Positions 29,775-54,362 of a DNA stretch of 64,000 nt are shown one piece after another. Origin of the DNA: Limnochordia bacterium (lineage in GTDB: Bacteria > Bacillota > Limnochordia > DTU080); the NCBI GenBank assembly GCA_050951545.1, contig JBMNJG010000003.1, forward strand, positions 96,001 to 160,000. The letters are read 5' to 3'. Both the position numbers and the translations under genes were made by a program. Position 1 is the first letter of the stretch. Each line of letters begins with the position of its first letter. A model generated the notes under the pieces. It searched no databases, had not been told where the DNA came from, and saw only the letters and a program-made list of their open reading frames with translations.

Positions 29775-30959
29775 ATGGCAGCCAAGAAGGGGCAAGGTTC
29801 TGTGAGATTCCGGGCTGACAAGGGCCTTTGGTGTGGCCAAGTCAGTCTAGGGTACCGCACAGACCAAGCGGAAAGCGCACGGTTCGTAAGACGTTTTACG
29901 GCAAGACTCAGCAGGAAGTACTCGATGCCATGGCGCGCCTGCAGGGCGACATTCTAGCAGGCAAGCCGATCCCCAACGACAGGCTTACCGTGAAGCAGCA
30001 CTTTGAAGACTGGTTGCGCTCCAAGAAAGCTGGCGTCGCCAGGAGCACCTATACGCAGTACGAAGGGCATGTTCAGACTCACATTATCCCTTCCTTGGGA
30101 CGTATCAAACTGAAGGACTTGGATTACCGCCGCATAAACGCCTTCTACGATGAGCTACACAACCGGGAAGACAAACTCGCCCCGCGCACCATCTACGACA
30201 TTGGCGCCATCCTACGCTCAGGACTTGAAGACGCAGTGCGCAAAGGGCTTGTACCCTCCAATCAAGGGAAACTGGCTGCAAAGCTCAGTAGGGGAGACAA
30301 GGAAGCTCGCTTTCTCAACCCCCAGGAGCTGGCCAGCTTCCTCGAAGCCTGCAAGGGCGAACGTCTAGAGAATGCATTCATTCTAGCCATCAATACCGGT
30401 ATGCGTCCCGGCGAATGGCTTGGCCTGTCGTGGGATGCCGTCGATCTGCAACAGGGAAAGCTCACTGTCAGGCAAGCGCTTCACGAAGTCTCGGGGAAGG
30501 TATATCTGGGCGACGTGAAAACGAAGGCCAGCAGGAGAACCATCTCTTTGCCGAAGGACGCCGTTCAAGCATTGCGCCGACAACGCAAGCATCAGACTCG
30601 AAGAGCAGCTTGCCTCTGGTGGCAGATGGGTCAATGAAGAGAACCTAGTCTTCACCGATACCCAAGGCGGTCTCCTACGCCGCACCAACGTATCTAAACG
30701 TGATATGAAGCGCATCGTCCGCCGTGCCGATCTCGAAGACGCAACACTGCACACCTTCCGCCATACTCACGCCAGCCTGCTGATCGCCGCAGGTGTCGAC
30801 ATCAAGACAATCTCCCGACGCCTGGGCCATGAGAATATCACGATCACGCTTCAGACCTACGGCCACTTGATGCCGGGCCAAGACGAACGGGCCGCCGACG
30901 TGATGGATACCATTCTCGCCGGGCTGCCATCTGTACCTCCCATGGCCTCCCGCCTCTAG
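29775..30959 (+). pseudogene. tyrosine integrase with two frameshifts (~29865, ~30596)
   Basis: KKGQGSV arm-binding N-terminus, TGMRPGE, VKT, HTFRHT, RLGH and TYGH catalytic motifs. Confidence 0.92.
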
Positions 30960-32298: not shown

Positions 32299-34209
32299 GC
32301 CATTTCCGGCACATGACGGCCACTTTTCGGTTGTAGCTACATTTTCTGGGTCTATGGCTGCGTTGGTGGCTTGATGTCTAGATAGCGCGGAGGGGCCTCT
32401 AGCTGCAGTTTTTGCAGGAAATCCTTTTGAACTTCACCGGGTTTGGTGGTTTGCCAGACCTCCCCACAATCCGTTGAATGGATGCCTACCTGCATGGTGT
32501 CAAAAGCCTTTTTCATCTGATGCCATGTGGCCTCCGTAGCATTTTCCGCCACGCGAATCAGCAGCAGTGAAAGCCAACATAGTAGAGCGTGAGCGCGGAT
32601 GCGTTCGTCCTTGCGATGGTAGACAGGACGGATGTCTACTACATGCTTCAGGTCGTCAAACACGCGCTCAATGTCCCAGAGCTGCTTGTAGCCCAGGACG
32701 ATGTCCTCAGCACTCAGCTTGTCGTCTGAGCTACTGACCAGGTATTTGCCGTCGAGCTGAGTCTCCTTGCGAATCTTCGCCTTGTCCAGGCTAAGCACGC
32801 CTGCTCGATTCTGCTGCAGATAGCGCCCGAAGGTGGGGTGCGAACGCAACTCGCACGCTCCCTTGGTGTGGGCTTCGCCCTCGAGCTGTTCTAGGGCCTC
32901 CAGGCAGCGTTCGATCTCGGCAACGATGTCGTCACGCTTCAAACGATCACGTTTGGCCTCCGTAGGATTACGTACGACTACGAAGCGTCTTTGGGCTGCA
33001 CCACCCTCATCAATCAGTACTTCCTTGATTTCGAGACCGTTGGCCAGTTTCTTGTACCTGCCGCGGCGGCTGAGGGCTTCCGCTGGCTCGGCGCCTGGTC
33101 CTAGGCACATTTTCTCACCAATGATGTAGTGACCGCCCGCGCCCTGTAAGACGCGCTGGTTGGCGGCCGAGTTGAACCCTGAGTCCATAACCATCACGAC
33201 CCGGCCCAGCTGCCAATCGTTCAGGTCCTTCTTTACTGCCTCGACTAGGTTCTGATCACAGCTATTGCCGGGGAAGGACCAGCATCTCACGGGTATGCCG
33301 CTACGAGTGATGGCGAAGGCGATGGTAACCTGCGCTAGGTCGTGCCGTTTCTGCTTGTTTCGACCGCGCTTACGCAGCCCTTCCCAAGTCGGCTCGCCAT
33401 CGTCGCCACAAATGTCGTCATCCGTATGCTCGATTTCGAAGTAGACGTTGGTCGTATCGACGAAGATCAGATCAACCTCGAGGTTGAAGAGGTTGACCAC
33501 CGAGAAGAACACGTCATGCTGAATCTTTTCATCGGCCTCGAGAAGGAAATCCATCGCCCGGTAAAGCTGATGAACCTCAACTTCATCAAGCCCTGAGATA
33601 TGTACCTTTTTGGCTACCCAGTGCTCGAGTCCAAGCTTACTGCATGGAGCCAACGCCCGATTCGCCACCATGGCGAAGATAAGCCGTTCGATCGGCGTAG
33701 CAGACTCTCGCTTACGCAGAAGAGTCTCGAGCACCTTTCGGATGCCCAAACGTTGCCACAGACCGTCTAGCAGCCATGTTCCGCCCAACTCCCTAGATCC
33801 CTTGAACTCAAAGGGCTGGACGTTGCCCGCTACTACCTGCGCTTCAGCGGCTTCATCCGGCTCCAGATATCTGGAGATGCTATTGACCAGACGTCGCAGA
33901 GCTTCCGTATCCAGGGCATCGGCCGGGCCAAGGTTATGAAGCACCTTGGTCTTTGAAACTCCCTTCACAGGGTCTCTATAGTTATGACAGAGTTGCACAT
34001 ACCGAAAGGTCTTGTGACTCTTTTTGACGGATACGGTTCGCATATACATTGTAACTATATTATACCACAGGTAAGCGATTAAGGGAAGGCCGAAAACAGA
34101 TAGGGTTGTAACTACGCGTTTTGCGGTTGTGGCCACACGTTCGCGCCCAAAAAACGCTATACTAGGCCATTTCGCATTTCGGTTGTGCCCCTCAACTGTT
34201 CAACGCCAG
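32246..34209 (-). mobile_element. IS1634-family insertion sequence
   Basis: Perfect 15-bp TIRs CTGGCGTTGAACAGT (32246-32260 / 34195-34209), extendable to an imperfect 29 bp; flanks ACCAA/ACCAG. Confidence 0.9.
32352..34049 (-). CDS. IS1634-family DDE transposase
   Basis: FVDTTNVYFE, VMDSG, YKQLWDIERVF, RPVYHRKDERIRAHALLCWL. Confidence 0.93.
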   Translation of the reverse strand: MYMRTVSVKKSHKTFRYVQLCHNYRDPVKGVSKTKVLHNLGPADALDTEALRRLVNSISRYLEPDEAAEAQVVAGNVQPFEFKGSRELGGTWLLDGLWQRLGIRKVLETLLRKRESATPIERLIFAMVANRALAPCSKLGLEHWVAKKVHISGLDEVEVHQLYRAMDFLLEADEKIQHDVFFSVVNLFNLEVDLIFVDTTNVYFEIEHTDDDICGDDGEPTWEGLRKRGRNKQKRHDLAQVTIAFAITRSGIPVRCWSFPGNSCDQNLVEAVKKDLNDWQLGRVVMVMDSGFNSAANQRVLQGAGGHYIIGEKMCLGPGAEPAEALSRRGRYKKLANGLEIKEVLIDEGGAAQRRFVVVRNPTEAKRDRLKRDDIVAEIERCLEALEQLEGEAHTKGACELRSHPTFGRYLQQNRAGVLSLDKAKIRKETQLDGKYLVSSSDDKLSAEDIVLGYKQLWDIERVFDDLKHVVDIRPVYHRKDERIRAHALLCWLSLLLIRVAENATEATWHQMKKAFDTMQVGIHSTDCGEVWQTTKPGEVQKDFLQKLQLEAPPRYLDIKPPTQP

Positions 34210-34705: not shown

Positions 34706-34782
34706 TGGTGGACGCTGCGGGACTCGAACCTGCGGCCTCCGCCTTGTAAGGGCGGCGCTCTAACCAGCTGAGCTAAGCGTCC
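34706..34782 (-). tRNA. tRNA-Val(TAC)
   Basis: Cloverleaf, anticodon loop CTTACAA, CCA end. Confidence 0.96.
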
Positions 34783-34815
34783 ATGACCCAACCTAGTGTG
34801 CAAGGGGCAAGAATT

Positions 34816-34844
34816 ATTGTATCCAAGATTGCCGTCACTGTCAA
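34816..34844 (-). promoter_or_regulatory. sigma-A promoter of tRNA-Val(TAC)
   Basis: TTGACA-17 bp-TACAAT. Confidence 0.8.
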
Positions 34845-35451
34845 TCGTCTCTTCGCGAAGGGATACACACACACGTGAAATCGCGGCGAACACCCGTTCC
34901 TGATCATGCTGCCTCCCGCCTCTCCCAGAAATCGTCCCACTGTTCACCGTGGGAGTATGCTGCAACGTTTAGCATCTGCTGTGCCCTAAGTTGGCTCCAA
35001 CGCGATTGCTTGTGGCGCCTAACAACAACCTGCTTACAGGCGCTTTCTACGCATCCGCTGCCAATGGGGTAGCCAGCGGCCTCCAGCCTCGGATAAAGGG
35101 TTCATCTCCTCCTGCGAAAGTGCCTCTTGAGTGCGTGTCAACCCACGAGTAAATCTTACCGAAGACCGTATGGCTCACTCACCAAAGATCTAACCCAACG
35201 CTTGCCTAAGTCAGAGCAGGCATAGGCTCACGACTACTGCTACGGACTCTCTGGGATGCATCGGTGGCCTCGGCCACCGATGCACTTGGTGGGCCTTGGC
35301 CGATCAGTTGTTCAATCCTGTGGTGCATAGCCAGTGGGTTTGGCTCACGTTGTCGCTTCTGCACGATCGCCAGCGGCGGGTGGACGCGCACTAACATTGG
35401 CTGCACGGCTGATGTGAGCACTAATGAAACGGACGAGGTGACCCAGGGTGA

Positions 35452-36555
35452 TTACTCGTCTTGCGTTTCGTCAGATTGGCTGGCGGTTCCCCAGCCGCGC
35501 TCATCTATTCTTTGCTGGTATTCACCGCATCTACACTCGAGATAGTTGATGAGCTTCCGGTTGAAGTCCTGACCGCGCCGGAATGGCAGCCGCCTGTGAA
35601 TCTTGCGCTTGATGATCTTGCAGGACAGCTCGTGAGCCTGAATCACGATCAGCTTGATCTTCTTCTTAGCGCAGATCTGCTGTTTGGTCTGGTCACGGCA
35701 TTGCTGCTTATGGACCTGCTCAGCCGAATTCCGCTCCGTGACGCGGTAGTGTTGCGCCCCATTGAACTCCATGGCCGTATTGTGCAAGTAATAGAAGAGA
35801 TCGACCTCCAGACGCTTGCCAGTTGCTGGGTTCCTCATGAAACCTGGGCGCATTCCGTCGTCGAAGTCAAGGCAATCGACAAGCGCCAAGAAGATAGCCT
35901 GCATGAGAGCCTCTCCGAGGTGCGTAGCGCGGTGGAGCTCATCCTGCACGTCTAGTATTTCTTTGACATTTCGCTTATCAACCGGGTTGTGGAGAGTGAA
36001 GCGAATCGGTGCCCGCTTGTGCGCCTGCTCCATCTCCAGCCAACCATGCTTGGCCAACTGACGAGCCGCGTGTTTGATGGTCTGGGGGCTCAGACTCATC
36101 CGGCCGGCTAACTCAGCGTATGTGAACTGCCTTTTGCGAGGTGGGTCCGTAGGTTTGGACAGCAGTAGGGCATAAACCAATTTGGCCTGTGCATGGATTT
36201 CAGTAGCCATGACTAACTCCACAGGTACGGAGACCCTATCCGGGGATGGCTTCTGTGCCGCGGTCTGGCTAGGTCCCCGCCTAGCCGGTGGAGCAAACCA
36301 GCCCTCGGTGGTTAACTTGGCTGTCGCCCTGCGAACGGTAGGCCGGGACATACCCGTGCGCCGCCCCAGGCGGCTGGGCGAGAAAAGGAAACTTTCCTCC
36401 AGCTGATCATCCATCGTTAAGGCCATCCAAACGATCTTCTCGCTGGCTTTTAGCTCGCGAGTCAGTAGCAGTGAGAGCGGCACGTTCACCTCATCTACAT
36501 AGAGAGAGTACAAGGGCCTCACCTCACATAACGACCATGTGTTCGATTGATTCAA
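35452..36555 (-). CDS. uncharacterised protein: two winged-HTH domains + C-terminal PD-(D/E)XK/Vsr-like nuclease domain
   Basis: Two wHTH repeats (LGRRTGMSRPTVRRATAKLTTEGW; LAGRMSLSPQTIKHAARQLAKHGW), then LEVDLFY..AMEFNGAQHY...QQCRDQTKQQIC; start may be TTG 36513. Confidence 0.8.
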   Translation of the reverse strand: MNQSNTWSLCEVRPLYSLYVDEVNVPLSLLLTRELKASEKIVWMALTMDDQLEESFLFSPSRLGRRTGMSRPTVRRATAKLTTEGWFAPPARRGPSQTAAQKPSPDRVSVPVELVMATEIHAQAKLVYALLLSKPTDPPRKRQFTYAELAGRMSLSPQTIKHAARQLAKHGWLEMEQAHKRAPIRFTLHNPVDKRNVKEILDVQDELHRATHLGEALMQAIFLALVDCLDFDDGMRPGFMRNPATGKRLEVDLFYYLHNTAMEFNGAQHYRVTERNSAEQVHKQQCRDQTKQQICAKKKIKLIVIQAHELSCKIIKRKIHRRLPFRRGQDFNRKLINYLECRCGEYQQRIDERGWGTASQSDETQDE

Positions 36556-36677
36556 TGCTGAATTCTATGTGCGGCTCCAGAATCCTTCCACAGACAATAG
36601 TTCTTCGCTGACTGCGCGTGCATTGCCGACTAAGACCCGGTGGCCACTGGGAGTCGACAGCATTTCCCCCTCGGATC

Positions 36678-37655
36678 ATCGGCTGAGTGGGAAAAGGCTG
36701 TCGCCACCGTCCGGTTATGTACTGCCCAGTAGCCCCAGAAGGGCCGCCGAGACGAGAAAACGCGCTCTTGGCCGGGGAAATGAGCCCTTCGGGCGGTCAA
36801 GATGAGCAAAAAAGGCTTCGCGAAGACCGCATCGCTGCACTTTTACCACGTACATTGGGCCCGGGGGTTAATGAGGCGGCTCTTTTGCCATCGCGGTCGG
36901 ATCCTTGGCCCCCACTTCACGTACCAATCCGGGTAAATCCCGTCCGACTACCGAGCCAGTCTCGCGAGCGTGTGCATGGTGCATGGTATTCGTCCAGCCT
37001 TTTCGAAACACACCGACCGGGCTAACACTGAAGGGTCGGTCCACAGAGGGACCCGAGTGAGCCCGCCGTGATCGCGCACTGGGGAGCTGACCCCATCGGC
37101 TGAGTGGCAAAAGGCTATCGACACTGCCGGGTTATGTACCGCCCAGTAGCTCCACAAGGGCCACCAGGGCGGGAAAGCGCGCTCTTTTGGGGGGAAAAGA
37201 GCCCTTCAGCCGGTCAAAATGAGCAAAAAGGGCTTCGCGAAGACCGCATCGCTGCACTTTTACCACGTACATTGGGCCCGGGGGCTAATGAGGCGGCTCT
37301 TTTGCCATCACGGTCGGATCCTTGGTCGCTACTCGCATGCCAATGCGGACAAATCCCGTTCGGCGAGCGAGTCTCGCAAGCGTGTCCATGCGCCCATTCT
37401 TTTCGAAACACACCGACCGGGCTAACACTGAAGGGTCGGTCCGCAGAGGGACCCGAGTGAGCCCGCCGTGATCGCGCACTGGGGAGCTGACCCCAATCGG
37501 CTGAGTGGCAAAAGGTATCGACACTGTTCGGTTATGTACTGCCCAGTAGCCCCAGAAGCGAAATCAGGGCGGGAAAGCGTGCTCTTGGGCGGCGAAATGA
37601 GCCTGTCGGGCGATCAAAATGAGCCTGTCGGGCGATTCGCGAAGACCGCATCGCT
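36678..37655. repeat. ~410-bp tandem repeat, ~2.4 copies
   Basis: Units begin ATCGGCTGAGTGG at 36678, 37095 and 37496 (periods 417 and 401 bp). Confidence 0.95.
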
Positions 37656-37835
37656 AGGTTGTTACCACCAACCCAAGCGAACGCAGAGAGATTACCGCAG
37701 TTTTTTGCGTGGCCCCTTCGCGAAGAGCCAAAGGCTGCCGATGGTAACAACATGTTCCGGTCTGCTTCGTCGTGATCCGGAGCCATTCGGGGTACCGTAA
37801 TGGTAGAGCAACGAACTTTTTTCCGGAGGTCAACC

Positions 37836-38681
37836 ATGCGTAGCCTATGGAAAGGCGCAGTCAGTTTTGGCTTAGTGAACATCCCCGTACGCATGTATGC
37901 CGCTACTGAAGATAAGGATTTGAGCTTCAGTCAGCTACATCGAGAGTGTCATACCCCTATTCGCTACGCCAAGTTCTGTCCCACCTGCGAACGGGAAGTG
38001 CAGCAAGAGGAGATCATTCGAGGTTATGCATACGACAACCGGGGCTTCGTCGTCCTGGAAGAAGACGATTTCGCCTCTCTTCCTGTGCCAACGCTTAAGA
38101 CAGTGGAAATCCTAGATTTCATTGATCTGGTGGAGATCGACCCCATCTACTACCAACGAAGCTACTACCTCGAGCCCCTGGAAGGCGCGACAAAACCCTA
38201 TTCGCTTCTGCTGCGAGCCATGCAGGAGAGTAGTAAGGTAGCTCTCGGCAAGATCACCATCCGGACACGAGAATCCCTGTGCTGTCTGCGCGTCTACCGT
38301 GATCTCCTGTCTGTAGCTACCATGCACTACCCCGACGAAGTGCGTTCTATTGAACAACTGCAGCCTCTACAGACCCACCCCGAGGTAGCCGCGGGGGAGC
38401 TGCGCATGGCTCTGCAGCTCATCGAAAGCCTGACGACCCCGTTCGAACCGAGCAAGTATACAGATGGATATCGTAGCGCTCTGCTGGAGCTGATCCGGAC
38501 CAAAGCCGCTGGCCACCAGATACACGAGGCGCCGACGCCGACGCCGTTGGCGGGTGATGTCATGGATCTGATGGCGGCTCTTGAGGCAAGCCTTAGCGCG
38601 GTAGAAAAGGAAAAGGTAATGTCCAAGACCGAGGTGGCTAGCTCCGCCAAGTTGGCTACCGGTCGACGACGCAAGGGCTAG
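37836..38681 (+). CDS. ku: non-homologous end joining protein Ku
   Basis: MRSLWKGAVSFGLVNIPV, IDPIYYQRSYYLEP, DLMAALEASL. Confidence 0.97.
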   Translation: MRSLWKGAVSFGLVNIPVRMYAATEDKDLSFSQLHRECHTPIRYAKFCPTCEREVQQEEIIRGYAYDNRGFVVLEEDDFASLPVPTLKTVEILDFIDLVEIDPIYYQRSYYLEPLEGATKPYSLLLRAMQESSKVALGKITIRTRESLCCLRVYRDLLSVATMHYPDEVRSIEQLQPLQTHPEVAAGELRMALQLIESLTTPFEPSKYTDGYRSALLELIRTKAAGHQIHEAPTPTPLAGDVMDLMAALEASLSAVEKEKVMSKTEVASSAKLATGRRRKG

Positions 38682-38689
38682 AGCAAGCC

Positions 38690-39676
38690 ATGCCCCTCCC
38701 CCCGTTTATCCCTCCGATGCTCGCTACACCAGGTCCTCTGACTTACTCCAAGGAGTCTTTGTACGAGCCAAAGTGGGACGGCCTGCGTTGTCTAGCTTTC
38801 AAGGATAAGAGGCTTCGCCTCATGAGCCGTAACGGTCGGGACATGACCGCTCACTTCCCGGACCTGGCGGATCTGGCACATTGCCTTCACGGTGAACCCT
38901 GGGTCTTAGACGGAGAGCTTGTCATCTTTGACGACACCGGAAAAGCAAGCTTTGATCTGGTACGCGATCGCAATCTGACAGCTACCCCTACACGCATTAC
39001 TCATCTGGCGCAGCGCCATCCCGCAGTTCTTATTGTCTTCGATCTTCTCTACCACCGCGGGATTAGCCTGATGGACAAGATGCTGCGTGCCCGTCGCAGC
39101 TTGCTTGAGCAGCACCTAGAGCCGGGGCAACACGTGGCACTTTCACCTGCAGTGGTTGGCGCGGGGCCTGGTTTTCACCAAACAGTGGTACACCACGGAT
39201 GTGAGGGGACGATGATTAAGAGGTTAGAGAGTCCGTACGCGCCTGGATCGCGAAGCCCTTATTGGATCAAGGTCCGCAATGTCAAGGAAACCGACTGTGT
39301 GATCGGCGGCTTCGTACAAAGAGGCCCTCAGCAGCTGGCAAGTCTGCTACTCGGACAGCATCTGCTCCCTGCGAAGACACTGCACTACGTTGGCCGCGTG
39401 GGCGCGGGTTTCTCCGAGAACCAGAGCCAAACCCTTCTGAATTTTCTTTACCGCATCCTGACCCATGCGCCACCCTTCACGGCGATTGCCCCAAATCTAG
39501 CTCGCGGAGCCTCCTGGGTTCGACCCATAGTGGTCTGCCGTGTCGAGTACCTAACATGGACCGCCAAAGGCCTACTGCGCCATCCGGTCTTTCGCGGCAT
39601 CCGTACGGATAAGCCACCTCTTGAGTGCCTATTGGCGGCCGATCATCCGTCCAGCACAGGAGCCTCTTCCCTATGA
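38690..39676 (+). CDS. ligD: ATP-dependent DNA ligase (LigD ligase domain)
   Basis: YEPKWDGLR, LDGELV, EGTMIKR, YVGRVGAGF, LRHPVFRGIR. Confidence 0.92.
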   Translation: MPLPPFIPPMLATPGPLTYSKESLYEPKWDGLRCLAFKDKRLRLMSRNGRDMTAHFPDLADLAHCLHGEPWVLDGELVIFDDTGKASFDLVRDRNLTATPTRITHLAQRHPAVLIVFDLLYHRGISLMDKMLRARRSLLEQHLEPGQHVALSPAVVGAGPGFHQTVVHHGCEGTMIKRLESPYAPGSRSPYWIKVRNVKETDCVIGGFVQRGPQQLASLLLGQHLLPAKTLHYVGRVGAGFSENQSQTLLNFLYRILTHAPPFTAIAPNLARGASWVRPIVVCRVEYLTWTAKGLLRHPVFRGIRTDKPPLECLLAADHPSSTGASSL

Positions 39677-40575
39677 CCAGGTACCCCGTAAAAGTAGGTG
39701 AGCGGCATCTTGAGCTATCCAATCTTGACAAGGTACTGTGGCCAGACAAAGGCATCACCAAAGGTGATCTCATTCACTACTACGCCTCAGTGGCCGAAAG
39801 ACTTCTACCTCACCTCAGAAGACGCCCCCTTACCCTCACCCGCTATCCCGATGGGATCACGGGTGACATGTTCTACCAGAAGGACACACCCCTGCATGCC
39901 CCTGACTGGTTGCCGACATACGCCGTTGCTTCCTCAATCCCCGGGCGCATGGTGCGTTACCTCTTGGCCGAGGAAGCCGCAGCTCTTGTCTGGTTAGCCA
40001 ACCAAGCAACCATTGAGATTCACCCATGGATGTCAACCGTAGAGCATCCCGCCTATCCTGACTACGCAGTCATTGACCTCGACCCTGCCGAGGGTGCCAC
40101 GTGGGCTGATGTGGTAGAGATCGCCAGATTGGTGCGAGTTCTGCTTGAGAGGCTGGACCTTGTTGGATTCCCCAAGCTTTCGGGGGCTACAGGCATCCAC
40201 ATCTATGTCCCGCTAGCCGCTCGCTATAGCTTTGCGCAGACCAGCCAGTTTGTCGGTTTCCTAGGGAGACTCTTGGTCAAAGCCTATCCGGAAAAGGCGA
40301 CCAATGAACGTCTTGTCCAGTGTCGCAACGGGAGAGTGTATATCGATCACCTTCAGAATCTGCCTGGAAAGACCATCGTGGCACCATACGTGCCCAGACC
40401 CGTCGCTGGCGCCCCTGTCTCGGTCCCCGTCTCCTGGGCGGAGCTCGGCGAAGTGACACCTGAGCAGTTCAGTGTAGATCAACCCCAGCTTATCCTGAAA
40501 CGCCCCAAAGATCATGACGCCATGTATAGTCTCCAGCAAAGCCTCGATGCTGTACTTCCTTTGCTGAATCTGTGA
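39673..40575 (+). CDS. ligD: LigD polymerase (primase-polymerase) domain protein
   Basis: LSNLDKVLWP, RYPDGI..FYQKD, IDLDP, KLSGATGIHIYVP. Confidence 0.92.
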   Translation: MTRYPVKVGERHLELSNLDKVLWPDKGITKGDLIHYYASVAERLLPHLRRRPLTLTRYPDGITGDMFYQKDTPLHAPDWLPTYAVASSIPGRMVRYLLAEEAAALVWLANQATIEIHPWMSTVEHPAYPDYAVIDLDPAEGATWADVVEIARLVRVLLERLDLVGFPKLSGATGIHIYVPLAARYSFAQTSQFVGFLGRLLVKAYPEKATNERLVQCRNGRVYIDHLQNLPGKTIVAPYVPRPVAGAPVSVPVSWAELGEVTPEQFSVDQPQLILKRPKDHDAMYSLQQSLDAVLPLLNL

Positions 40576-53282: not shown

Positions 53283-54362
53283 GTGCACACCATGCAACAA
53301 CCAGTGTCGGGCTCGGGGTGGTGCGAACGTCTTGAGCTTGTACTGGAAGGCGGCGGGAAGTTGCCTGGTGCTATTCGGATAGTAGATATCCGCGACAAAG
53401 TGCTTGCCTGCACTGCCGACCGCGAGGATGACAAGGCCTTGGTACGCGGGCAGCTACAGGTCTTCGTATACTACAACATTGACGGCTGCGACCGGGTGCA
53501 AGGTCAGGGTGCGGAGATCCCCTGGCATTTTGAAGTGCCTATCCCTCCAGCCGTAGAAGGAGCGCTAGAGGCACGCGTAGTGGAGGTAAGACATGATCAT
53601 TCCTATGATCCCAAAAGCGAACAGCTACGCCACACTATGCATGTGGCCTTTGAAGTCTGGAATATCGACGCCCAACCCGCCGAGCAACCCGTCTGTCATT
53701 CAGCGTGCGATGGGGCAGCCTCGAGTGATGCCATAAAACCTATTGGAGCGCCTTTGTTTGAGCCAGAGCCGGCTGCTAATGCACTGGAACTGGAGCTATC
53801 CGAAACCAGTGATTCGCCAGATTCTGAGGCTGTGCTGACTGACCCTGACAGTGAGGACATTATCGAACCTCACCCAAGTGACAGTGACGAGCAATCAGTT
53901 CCTGCGGGGAGCACAACCCGCGATGATCCGTCTGAGATGCCTTGCCTGGATCACGAGTTATCCTTGGAAACCTCGGATTCATCGGTCACGCCTGAGCAGC
54001 ACGAACTGCAGCCAACGGATGTCGTCATAGCGGACACCGTCATGAGCGAGCGTCTTGACGACCTGGAAAACCAACTGCACCAGATGAGAAGCGAGTTCAT
54101 CGCCTTGCGCAAGGAGCTAGAGAGTCTGCGGGAGTGGGCCAAGGTAGAGACCATGGTTGAGACTAGTGTGGAGTGTGCAAAAGAGCTAGCGCCTGTGGTT
54201 GAAGAGCTAGCGCCTGTGGTTGAAGAGCTAGCGCCTGTGGTTGAAGAGCTAACGCCTGTGGTTGAAGAGCTAACGCCTGTGGTTGAAGAGCTAACGCCCC
54301 AACCTGCGAAACCGAAACCAGAGCGTGAGGTTCTTGTCTGGCGCCCCTTCCCGAGGATCTAG
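53283..54362 (+). CDS. hypothetical spore coat morphogenetic-like protein (SpoVID/SPOCS-like N-terminus, acidic linker)
   Basis: Beta-rich N-terminal domain (VRGQLQVFVYY), acidic low-complexity middle, sigma-E-like CATAGAT upstream. Confidence 0.55.
   Translation: MHTMQQPVSGSGWCERLELVLEGGGKLPGAIRIVDIRDKVLACTADREDDKALVRGQLQVFVYYNIDGCDRVQGQGAEIPWHFEVPIPPAVEGALEARVVEVRHDHSYDPKSEQLRHTMHVAFEVWNIDAQPAEQPVCHSACDGAASSDAIKPIGAPLFEPEPAANALELELSETSDSPDSEAVLTDPDSEDIIEPHPSDSDEQSVPAGSTTRDDPSEMPCLDHELSLETSDSSVTPEQHELQPTDVVIADTVMSERLDDLENQLHQMRSEFIALRKELESLREWAKVETMVETSVECAKELAPVVEELAPVVEELAPVVEELTPVVEELTPVVEELTPQPAKPKPEREVLVWRPFPRI
54181..54299 (+). repeat. 21-bp in-frame tandem repeat, ~5.7 copies (EL[A/T]PVVE)
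   Basis: AAGAGCTA[G/A]CGCCTGTGGTTG units at 54181, 54202, 54223, 54244, 54265 and 54286. Confidence 0.95.

Follow-up and report, generated by a model that had tools for sequence, protein, structure and literature searches.

A tandem array beside a winged-helix nuclease gene of a Limnochordia bacterium: recombining DNA modules of constrained geometry as putative nuclease docking sites

As judged from sequence comparison, the tandem array upstream of a nuclease gene in a Limnochordia bacterium appears to be a real, recombining set of DNA modules that are constrained in their geometry, do not act as RNA and are tied to an unstudied nuclease family; the mechanism put forward below is a proposal. 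The stretch analysed (64,000 nucleotides of contig JBMNJG010000003.1) is called the window hereafter, and the genome to which it belongs is called G000. We give an even chance to the reading that the array consists of docking modules for the adjacent nuclease, which would nick them once the SOS response is on and thereby bring about recombination. Docking by this nuclease, taken alone, is considered probable and is rated above the full model, because the sponge and origin rivals share docking.

A ~410-bp tandem array upstream of the nuclease had been reported by the first-pass annotation, and this was confirmed: the units start at 36678, 37095 and 37496, giving spacings of 417 and 401. By homology with the other copies, the array extends from ~36677 to 37668, and the surrounding element ends at 37716. 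The repeated region begins 10 bp ahead of GTGGGAAAAG at 36687 and stops exactly at an inverted GTGGTAAAAG-type arm at 37668. As the edges are set by arms, the array is made up of three modules of 163-164 bp with two linkers of ~245 bp between them (Table 1), which is a better count than the '2.4 units' given earlier. Most of the unit lengths, which range over 387-436 bp, cannot be divided by three, and on this ground of length a decayed coding repeat was rejected. The identical 20-mers of unit 3, at 37595 and 37617, are present too. Here an internal repeat of 22 bp that was already there (37595-37636) has been overwritten, and since the third module measures 164 bp instead of 163 (1 bp gained), the presumed duplication brought no added length.

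The two near-identical blocks attributed to units 1 and 2 were found as described, with 2 differences between the units in the block at ~36814-36908 and 1 difference in the block at ~37000-37095. When every pair of the 48 genome units was compared, the mean number of differences in the same two blocks was 9.4 and 8.0, and just 3.3% and 1.9% of the pairs, respectively, were as similar as units 1 and 2 of the window. The pi of the two conserved blocks was 0.09-0.10 versus 0.15-0.18 in the remaining two blocks. Because unit pairs across the genome differ far more and the block pi is only moderately low, the near-identity of units 1 and 2 reflects mostly recent homogenisation over moderately conserved blocks. 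Elsewhere in the window (54181-54298), a 21-bp tandem repeat of 5.6 copies with 98% matches was observed.

Table 1. Features of the element and its insertion site, in window coordinates
Feature	Position	Strand	Remark
Host sigma-A-type promoter of tRNA-Val cluster, TTGACA-17-TACAAT	34816..34844	-	11/12 matches
Left 9-bp target-site duplication TTCGCGAAG	34852..34860	+	same 9-mer at 37717-37725
Left terminal inverted repeat	34861..34886	+	outer bases altered here vs ten other copies
ISKra4-family transposase remnant, last ~65 codons	34904..35101	-	NF033572 positions 363-413, E 1e-11
353-aa protein, TTG start (36513)	35452..36513	-	two initiator-like winged helices plus Vsr/EDxHD-like nuclease domain
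LexA-box-like site	36532..36545	.	just upstream of ribosome-binding site; one mismatch in GAAC-N4-GTTC core
Module 1	36687..36849	-	163 bp; inverted 10-bp arm cores GTGGTAAAAG / GTGGGAAAAG; likely docking unit
Linker 1	36850..37103	.	254 bp
Module 2	37104..37266	-	163 bp
Linker 2	37267..37504	.	238 bp
Module 3	37505..37668	-	164 bp; variant outer arm; contains 22-bp overwrite 37595-37636
Right terminal inverted repeat	37695..37716	-	22 bp, imperfect match to left repeat
Right 9-bp target-site duplication	37717..37725	+	copy of left 9-mer

The nuclease gene of the window has relatives at 31 dispersed chromosomal loci of G000 with differing flanks, its own locus included. Family A comprises 17 close copies, family B has 4 copies at 54% identity, family C has 7 at 47-49% and family D has 2 at 46-47%; the remaining locus holds a fragment. 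A partnership of the array with the wHTH-nuclease had been suggested, and genome-wide co-occurrence bears it out: each family-A locus (17/17) carries one nuclease gene with its own array, with 2-6 unit starts upstream. Tandem units lie downstream of the gene in family B (~260-bp) and family C (~94-bp). Nuclease and array also occur without the ISKra4 shell described below, namely in family C and in a group of related genomes (f3). The alternative of a dispersed MITE was rejected; no solo family-C units were found, and about 21 of 113 module matches in G000 lie more than 4 kb from a gene, several of them in truncated or interrupted copies. Some of the loci have neighbours of their own. At G000:C6 ~154700-159100, a 4-kb stretch with ~59-bp periodicity, which may be a CRISPR array, lies next to a fragment of the nuclease gene that is accompanied by an incomplete array. 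An ORF resembling, by eye, a group II intron reverse transcriptase (L010:160-936, on C8) is located just upstream of a family-B copy, and the family-B copies of C8 and C9 have ~920 bp upstream in common.

Divergence among the family-A copies amounts to 1.7% in the ORF (synonymous 4.6%), 3.2% in the ISKra4 remnant and ~13-14% in the units. No two family-A loci have the same array, and variants occur in shared blocks. At distances above 40 bp, every second pair of sites violates the four-gamete condition, with no difference between units and ORF, and linkage disequilibrium (LD) is gone within 20-40 bp, in agreement with the gene conversion that had been considered at the outset. Hypermutation of a DGR-like kind was rejected, as the singleton spectrum is mixed and the rate is not raised (0.006 per base per sequence in the units, n=48, versus 0.009 in the ISKra4 remnant, n=9). 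Old unit diversity is thus being shuffled by recombination over short tracts, and the units are recombination mosaics; this shuffling accounts for the alternating conserved and variable blocks.

The family-A module measures 163 bp in 40 and 162-164 bp in 54 of 63 cases, the sole large variant being 184 bp (+21), and the family-A linkers range from 224 to 254 bp with a mode of 242-245 bp. It is homologous to the 162-bp core of the family-B unit (z 11-12) and related to the upstream repeats of family D, which are 151-153 bp in length (z 5-8). The B elements end with a D-like module, which at 163 bp is one turn longer than that of D. The length class (152/162/163 bp) is held across three paralogue families, of which the proteins are only 47-54% identical. 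No clearly homologous module was found in family C (z at most 4.9), where the candidate spans are 174 and 186. One family-A arm is nearly invariant, with a pi of 0.037 versus 0.132 for the whole unit; the other has a 10-bp core with a pi of 0.081 and a variable outer half (pi 0.197). The two arms share only ~10 bp, and within 410 bp chance alone would supply an inverted match of 9/10. The putative centre (pi 0.118) is not clearly above the unit in conservation. At distances of 6-30 bp, r2 was 0.061 in the module versus 0.151 in the linker (locus-bootstrap difference 0.025-0.119); no sharp LD dip was seen at the module centre, and a breakpoint hotspot there was rejected. A model built from the G000 modules (R2) gave 74 matches in G000 and none in 39 other genomes.

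In the f3 group, a 19-bp motif was found in alternating orientation upstream of the homologous genes in G009 and G011, the proteins of which are 49-87% identical mutually. In the f3 module, two 19-bp arms in inverted orientation flank a fixed central motif; its length is mostly 149 bp and varies by about one turn of the helix. Convergent arm pairs (n=21) span 149 bp in 10 cases, 150-151 bp in 4, 138-140 bp in 3 and 159-162 bp in 4, and the divergent gaps (n=14) extend from 46 to 243 bp. Among the distinct spans there is phasing at 10.5 bp (R 0.81), whereas the gaps are unphased (R 0.10); few independent indels underlie the phasing. When seven 149-bp modules from 7 loci were compared ungapped, the arms were 73% and 69% alike, the central 15 bp 64% and the interiors 31-32%. 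Aligned in a set of 32, the f3 modules showed no arm covariation beyond shuffles.

A held-out set of 17 further regions was picked by one 13-mer match, the central motif being left out of the picking. Ten of these regions held 24 arm pairs spanning 130-168 bp and 7 held none. The spans were 149-152 bp in 17 pairs, 138-140 bp in 4, 130 bp in 2 and 168 bp in 1, and the distinct spans gave an R of 0.58-0.70, those of 130 and 168 bp falling outside the classes. In 18 of the 23 held-out modules checked, the central AGC(A/T)G(G/C) was located at position 69-73. Nine of the 10 regions with pairs contained no nuclease gene within the 2.3-5 kb examined. Many gene-less arrays were observed in G011, though on short contigs. 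Two intergenic ones are L227:512-2145 (G011:C58) with 5 modules and L223:1622-3334 (G011:C34) with 6 modules; L227 has a period of 416-419 bp, like the 417 bp of the window, and the sequences are unrelated.

A model of the f3 module (R1) matched four f3 genomes, with at least 34 matches each in G009 and G011, 7 in G010 and 6 in G007. Elsewhere it matched G085 once (both strands) and three other genomes weakly; G085 has this one module and no nuclease match at 1e-25. R1 gave no match in G000, the window module included, and pairwise comparison found no sequence homology between the G000 and f3 modules (z at most 3.8). Because of this, their equivalence rests on the position by homologous genes, the A-run-rich inverted arms and the length classes about one turn apart, from which we infer that both are the same device. 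A blind inverted-repeat scan outside f3 returned scattered hints close to background. Downstream of the gene at L016/L236 (G004:C111), a perfect 14-bp inverted pair with an f3-arm-like core spans 156 bp and is possibly a third module lineage. Of the functions named in the first-pass annotation, binding sites would be the likelier one, given the fixed-span modules with inverted arms and a central motif in the relatives.

Array and nuclease gene sit in a 2.86-kb shell, and homology among the family-A copies ends sharply at 34870 and 37716. According to the accessible text of PMC3942029, members of the ISKra4 group have terminal repeats of 18-39 bp, produce 8-9-bp duplications and insert 13-17 bp upstream of sigma-A promoters. 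The ends of the shell are imperfect 22-bp inverted repeats, within the 18-39 bp range of the group, and the window element is inserted 16 bp upstream of the -35 box of the tRNA-Val cluster promoter. Among 9 two-ended copies, the 9-bp duplication is 9/9 in 5, 8/9 in 1 and absent from 3; the perfect ones belong to the copies C4a, C5a, C7a and C11 and to the window, where the left end is altered and the duplication was read directly from the sequence. TTGA(C/A)N was present at base 17 from a junction in 7/9 two-ended copies. The ISKra4 C-terminal remnant was found in 10 copies, and a 479-aa full-length relative, 69% identical to the remnant of the C11 copy, scored 245 bits against an ISKra4 cut-off of 205. 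An intact ISKra4 partner was found neither in G000 (94% complete) nor in 11 other genomes of the order, and the search of metagenome and genome contigs for an autonomous ISKra4 yielded only 39-67% relatives over short stretches. The end pattern of the shell was found in 1 of 41 genomes. Because the ends, the duplication, the transposase tail and the promoter targeting match the group and no intact partner was found in these genomes, the shell is, by its sequence features, a non-autonomous ISKra4 derivative, of a known kind.

Two other mobilisers were considered and rejected: ISLre2, whose three intact G000 copies have ends different from those of the shell, and IS256, which is represented by fragments only. 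The near-identical intact ISLre2-type elements (G000:C16:149588, C2:219351 and C9:24296) show short target duplications and a TTGA hexamer near the right junction. A 43-bp stretch of the window (35133-35175) matches DNA beside an IS256 fragment at G000:C3:81202-81244. At G000:C16:2079-2332 and C7:457695-458150, an inner right and an inner left repeat are nested in the left part of the copies, which suggests a shell-in-shell insertion or the capture of flanks. Directly past the right end of the window element (37800-40575, +) lie Ku, ATP-dependent ligase and LigD primase-polymerase, that is, end-joining functions; these neighbours are probably there by chance, because other copies have different flanks. 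A 594-aa DDE_Tnp_1 transposase just past the tRNA cluster (32352-34136, -) shows no link to the shell ends, and a tyrosine integrase apparently in two frames beside tRNA-Val and tRNA-Cys (29828-30959, +) is likely a remnant of an integrated element.

The predicted structure of the 353-aa protein reached a pLDDT of 90 and a pTM of 0.85 from a 114-sequence alignment. In this model, residues 18-191 (the wHTH pair) superpose on the pi initiator 2nra with a Z of 8.6 over 161 residues and an rmsd of 4.0, and residues 210-324 align to I-Bth0305I 3r3p and Vsr 1cw0 (Z 8.0; 3r3p over 93 residues, rmsd 2.8). Structural Z-scores near 8 are middling, yet they agree with PHROG matches to initiator and homing-nuclease families. 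Conservation of D252, E263, H269 and D288 reaches at least 90% across the 114 sequences; by the aligned ranges, these positions would correspond to catalytic residues. Pfam and NCBIfam returned HTH families only; the PDB searched by sequence, as well as Foldseek, gave nothing at E up to 0.001, 1rep being a weak Foldseek row, and no defence family could be assigned from PADLOC. Thirteen of the 15 full-length family-A copies have open frames, and a pN/pS of 0.18 indicates purifying selection. Of 89 genomes in the class, 15 contain homologues. Unnamed proteins of Bacillota form the nearest Atlas clusters, and with an E of up to 1e-30 the nuclease family comprises at least 239 clusters. At G004:C5, C74, C51 and C31 the homologues are 437-661 aa in length because the two winged helices are separated by long insertions; the C5 copy has short internal repeats.

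GAAC-N4-GTTC with at most 1 mismatch was located at the gene start in 28/31 G000 loci and 21/42 loci in relatives, where ~0.1 per locus would be expected. The box of family A carries a mismatch. Similar boxes precede lexA in G000, and no such box was found within 1.5 kb upstream of recA. SOS (LexA) repression of the nuclease gene is thus likely on the evidence of these boxes.

In the proposed mechanism, each tandem-wHTH unit would bind one arm, as RepE and pi bind their iterons, which are 19-22 bp in length. The tandem-wHTH nuclease is put forward as the docking protein because it is the sole candidate travelling with the sites and changing lineage with them. With two proteins bound at a distance of whole helical turns, the DNA would form a loop in which the nuclease domains reach the central site. 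A conserved length with a free interior, inverted non-covarying arms and a fixed centre is the mark of a looped protein-DNA complex, as in attP and P1 parS, and the central CWGG-type word is one that we take to resemble a Vsr-like preference. The SOS response would lift the repression, upon which nicking of the modules is predicted. Such nicks would trigger conversion over short tracts as well as unequal exchange from one module to another, leading to mosaics, copy-number change and orphan arrays. The recent spread of the family-A subfamily may have been brought about by an ISKra4 transposase in trans, now lost or unassembled. A bolder version, possible but doubtful in our judgement, is that of a new class of self-spreading element, in which an SOS-switched, initiator-like wHTH pair with a Vsr-like nuclease would assemble on and cut a 150-163-bp arm-centre-arm site, copying modules and its own gene by recombination without a transposase, the ISKra4 capture being secondary. 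Its site spacing would be fixed in helical turns, in the manner of phage attP, and such an element would be the functional counterpart of REPIN-RAYT, though made from unrelated parts.

Among the rivals of the docking-and-nicking proposal, the one that survives best, though unlikely, takes the modules as a DNA sponge or operator array that titrates a toxic SOS-induced nuclease (an addiction or suicide module) and stays uncut, the shuffling being ordinary repeat recombination. An array does accompany every family-A gene, an SOS-like box and purifying selection on the nuclease would suit such a module, and the singleton rates, not higher in the units than in the ISKra4 remnant, give no sign of local hypermutation; a sponge would, however, have no obvious need for a fixed span or a central motif, orphan arrays lie far from any gene, and the PADLOC matches are weak and at HTH level only.

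Ranking below the sponge, and improbable in our view, the repeats could be functionless passengers, old element DNA multiplied within the shell by unequal crossing-over, with a constant length that reflects short divergence time. Counting against this are the f3 modules, where length, arms and centre persist at 31-32% interior identity, and the module length class of G000, which is kept across proteins 47-54% identical, although the family-A units are still 86-88% alike, their linkers too show a modal length (242-245 bp) and the ORF recombines as freely as the units.

Next in rank, and also improbable, is a replication start for an excised circle or local re-replication, at which the wHTH pair would bind the arms and the nuclease would make the priming nick. 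The pair resembles pi, RepE and phage initiator families, but the arms are inverted and ~110-140 bp apart rather than direct iterons, and no joining step is known for a Vsr-type hydrolase. The alignments show no obvious AT-rich region at which unwinding could begin, and viral contigs gave just two distant partial matches, even though p-MULT elements form circles and TnGBS circles replicate, as stated in the accessible text of PMC3942029.

The array of structured ncRNAs (guides or scaffolds for the nuclease) that the first-pass annotation had offered is disfavoured and very improbable, since Rfam gave nothing for 34780-37850 at both thresholds, the mean folding z was -0.5 to +0.8 (120-nt windows, 6 sampled units, both strands) and the proposed covariation check found two-sided change in only 4/77 and 2/70 consensus pairs (48 of 49 full units, one 577-bp unit being dropped). 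The hairpin-like words and palindromes noted earlier do exist in the units. In f3, arm mismatches lean to G-U on the ORF strand (37 vs 18) and arm pairing is slightly above shuffles (8/500), but 32 f3 modules gave a consensus energy of -0.21 kcal/mol with 4 pairs, and the interior folding z was near 0 in most of 21 f3 modules, with three L037 copies as the exception. The units contain no hypervariable spacer-like segment. In assembled contigs of 4 RNA runs, which cannot rank expression, a few short low-depth pieces touch the array and more touch the ORF.

Under the docking reading, the nuclease and its modules can be set beside several known systems. REPIN-RAYT, in the accessible text of PMC3337134, likewise shows inverted motifs, discrete spacer classes of diverse sequence, tandem arrays, clustering at the cognate enzyme gene, lineage-specific motif-enzyme pairing and orphan copies elsewhere. 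REPINs form hairpins and REPs are palindromes, whereas here the interior is unfolded and the central motif fixed; RAYT is an HUH tyrosine transposase, whereas here a multi-copy tandem wHTH plus Vsr-like nuclease is found. The pair is organised like REPIN-RAYT but is not a member of it, as neither the hairpin nor the HUH enzyme was found. The shell resembles the ISKra4-group p-MULT 4 and mobile insertion cassettes in its 22-bp imperfect repeats, 9-bp duplication, distance of 16 bp from the -35 box, passenger gene and transposase tail, as far as the accessible text of PMC3942029 describes them; it differs in that just the last ~65 transposase codons are left and in carrying, as cargo, a nuclease gene together with the array that belongs to it.

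EDxHD homing endonucleases, with I-Bth0305I as the prototype (PMC3239194, accessible text), share with the protein the catalytic fold, the conserved acidic and His residues and an N-terminal DNA-binding part. Their genes lie in introns or inteins or stand free in phages, and they home to an empty allele. Here, in contrast, the gene is free-standing, multi-copy and chromosomal, in neither intron nor intein (no Rfam intron was found at the locus), an initiator-like wHTH pair takes the place of NUMOD repeats, and a putative 150-163-bp site by the own gene stands against the 60-bp site in the intron-less allele given in that text. The iteron initiators pi (R6K, 2nra) and RepE (F, 1rep) offer tandem winged helices, putative ~19-bp sites and helical phasing, but the sites here are inverted far-apart pairs instead of direct repeats, and the protein is fused to a nuclease and chromosomally encoded behind an SOS-like box. 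Searches of the open literature listed no description of the nuclease-module pair. Any novelty would lie in this pair, the shell being of an already known kind.

If the proposal is true, the array would be an interspersed bacterial repeat conserved in its DNA geometry, that is, in inverted arms, a central site and a turn-quantised length, and not in sequence or RNA fold. The two lineages with different arm sequences would provide a built-in specificity swap, and the site is predicted closely enough for binding and cleavage to be tested directly, which could reveal a long-site nickase together with a transposase-free route for genes and repeats to multiply.
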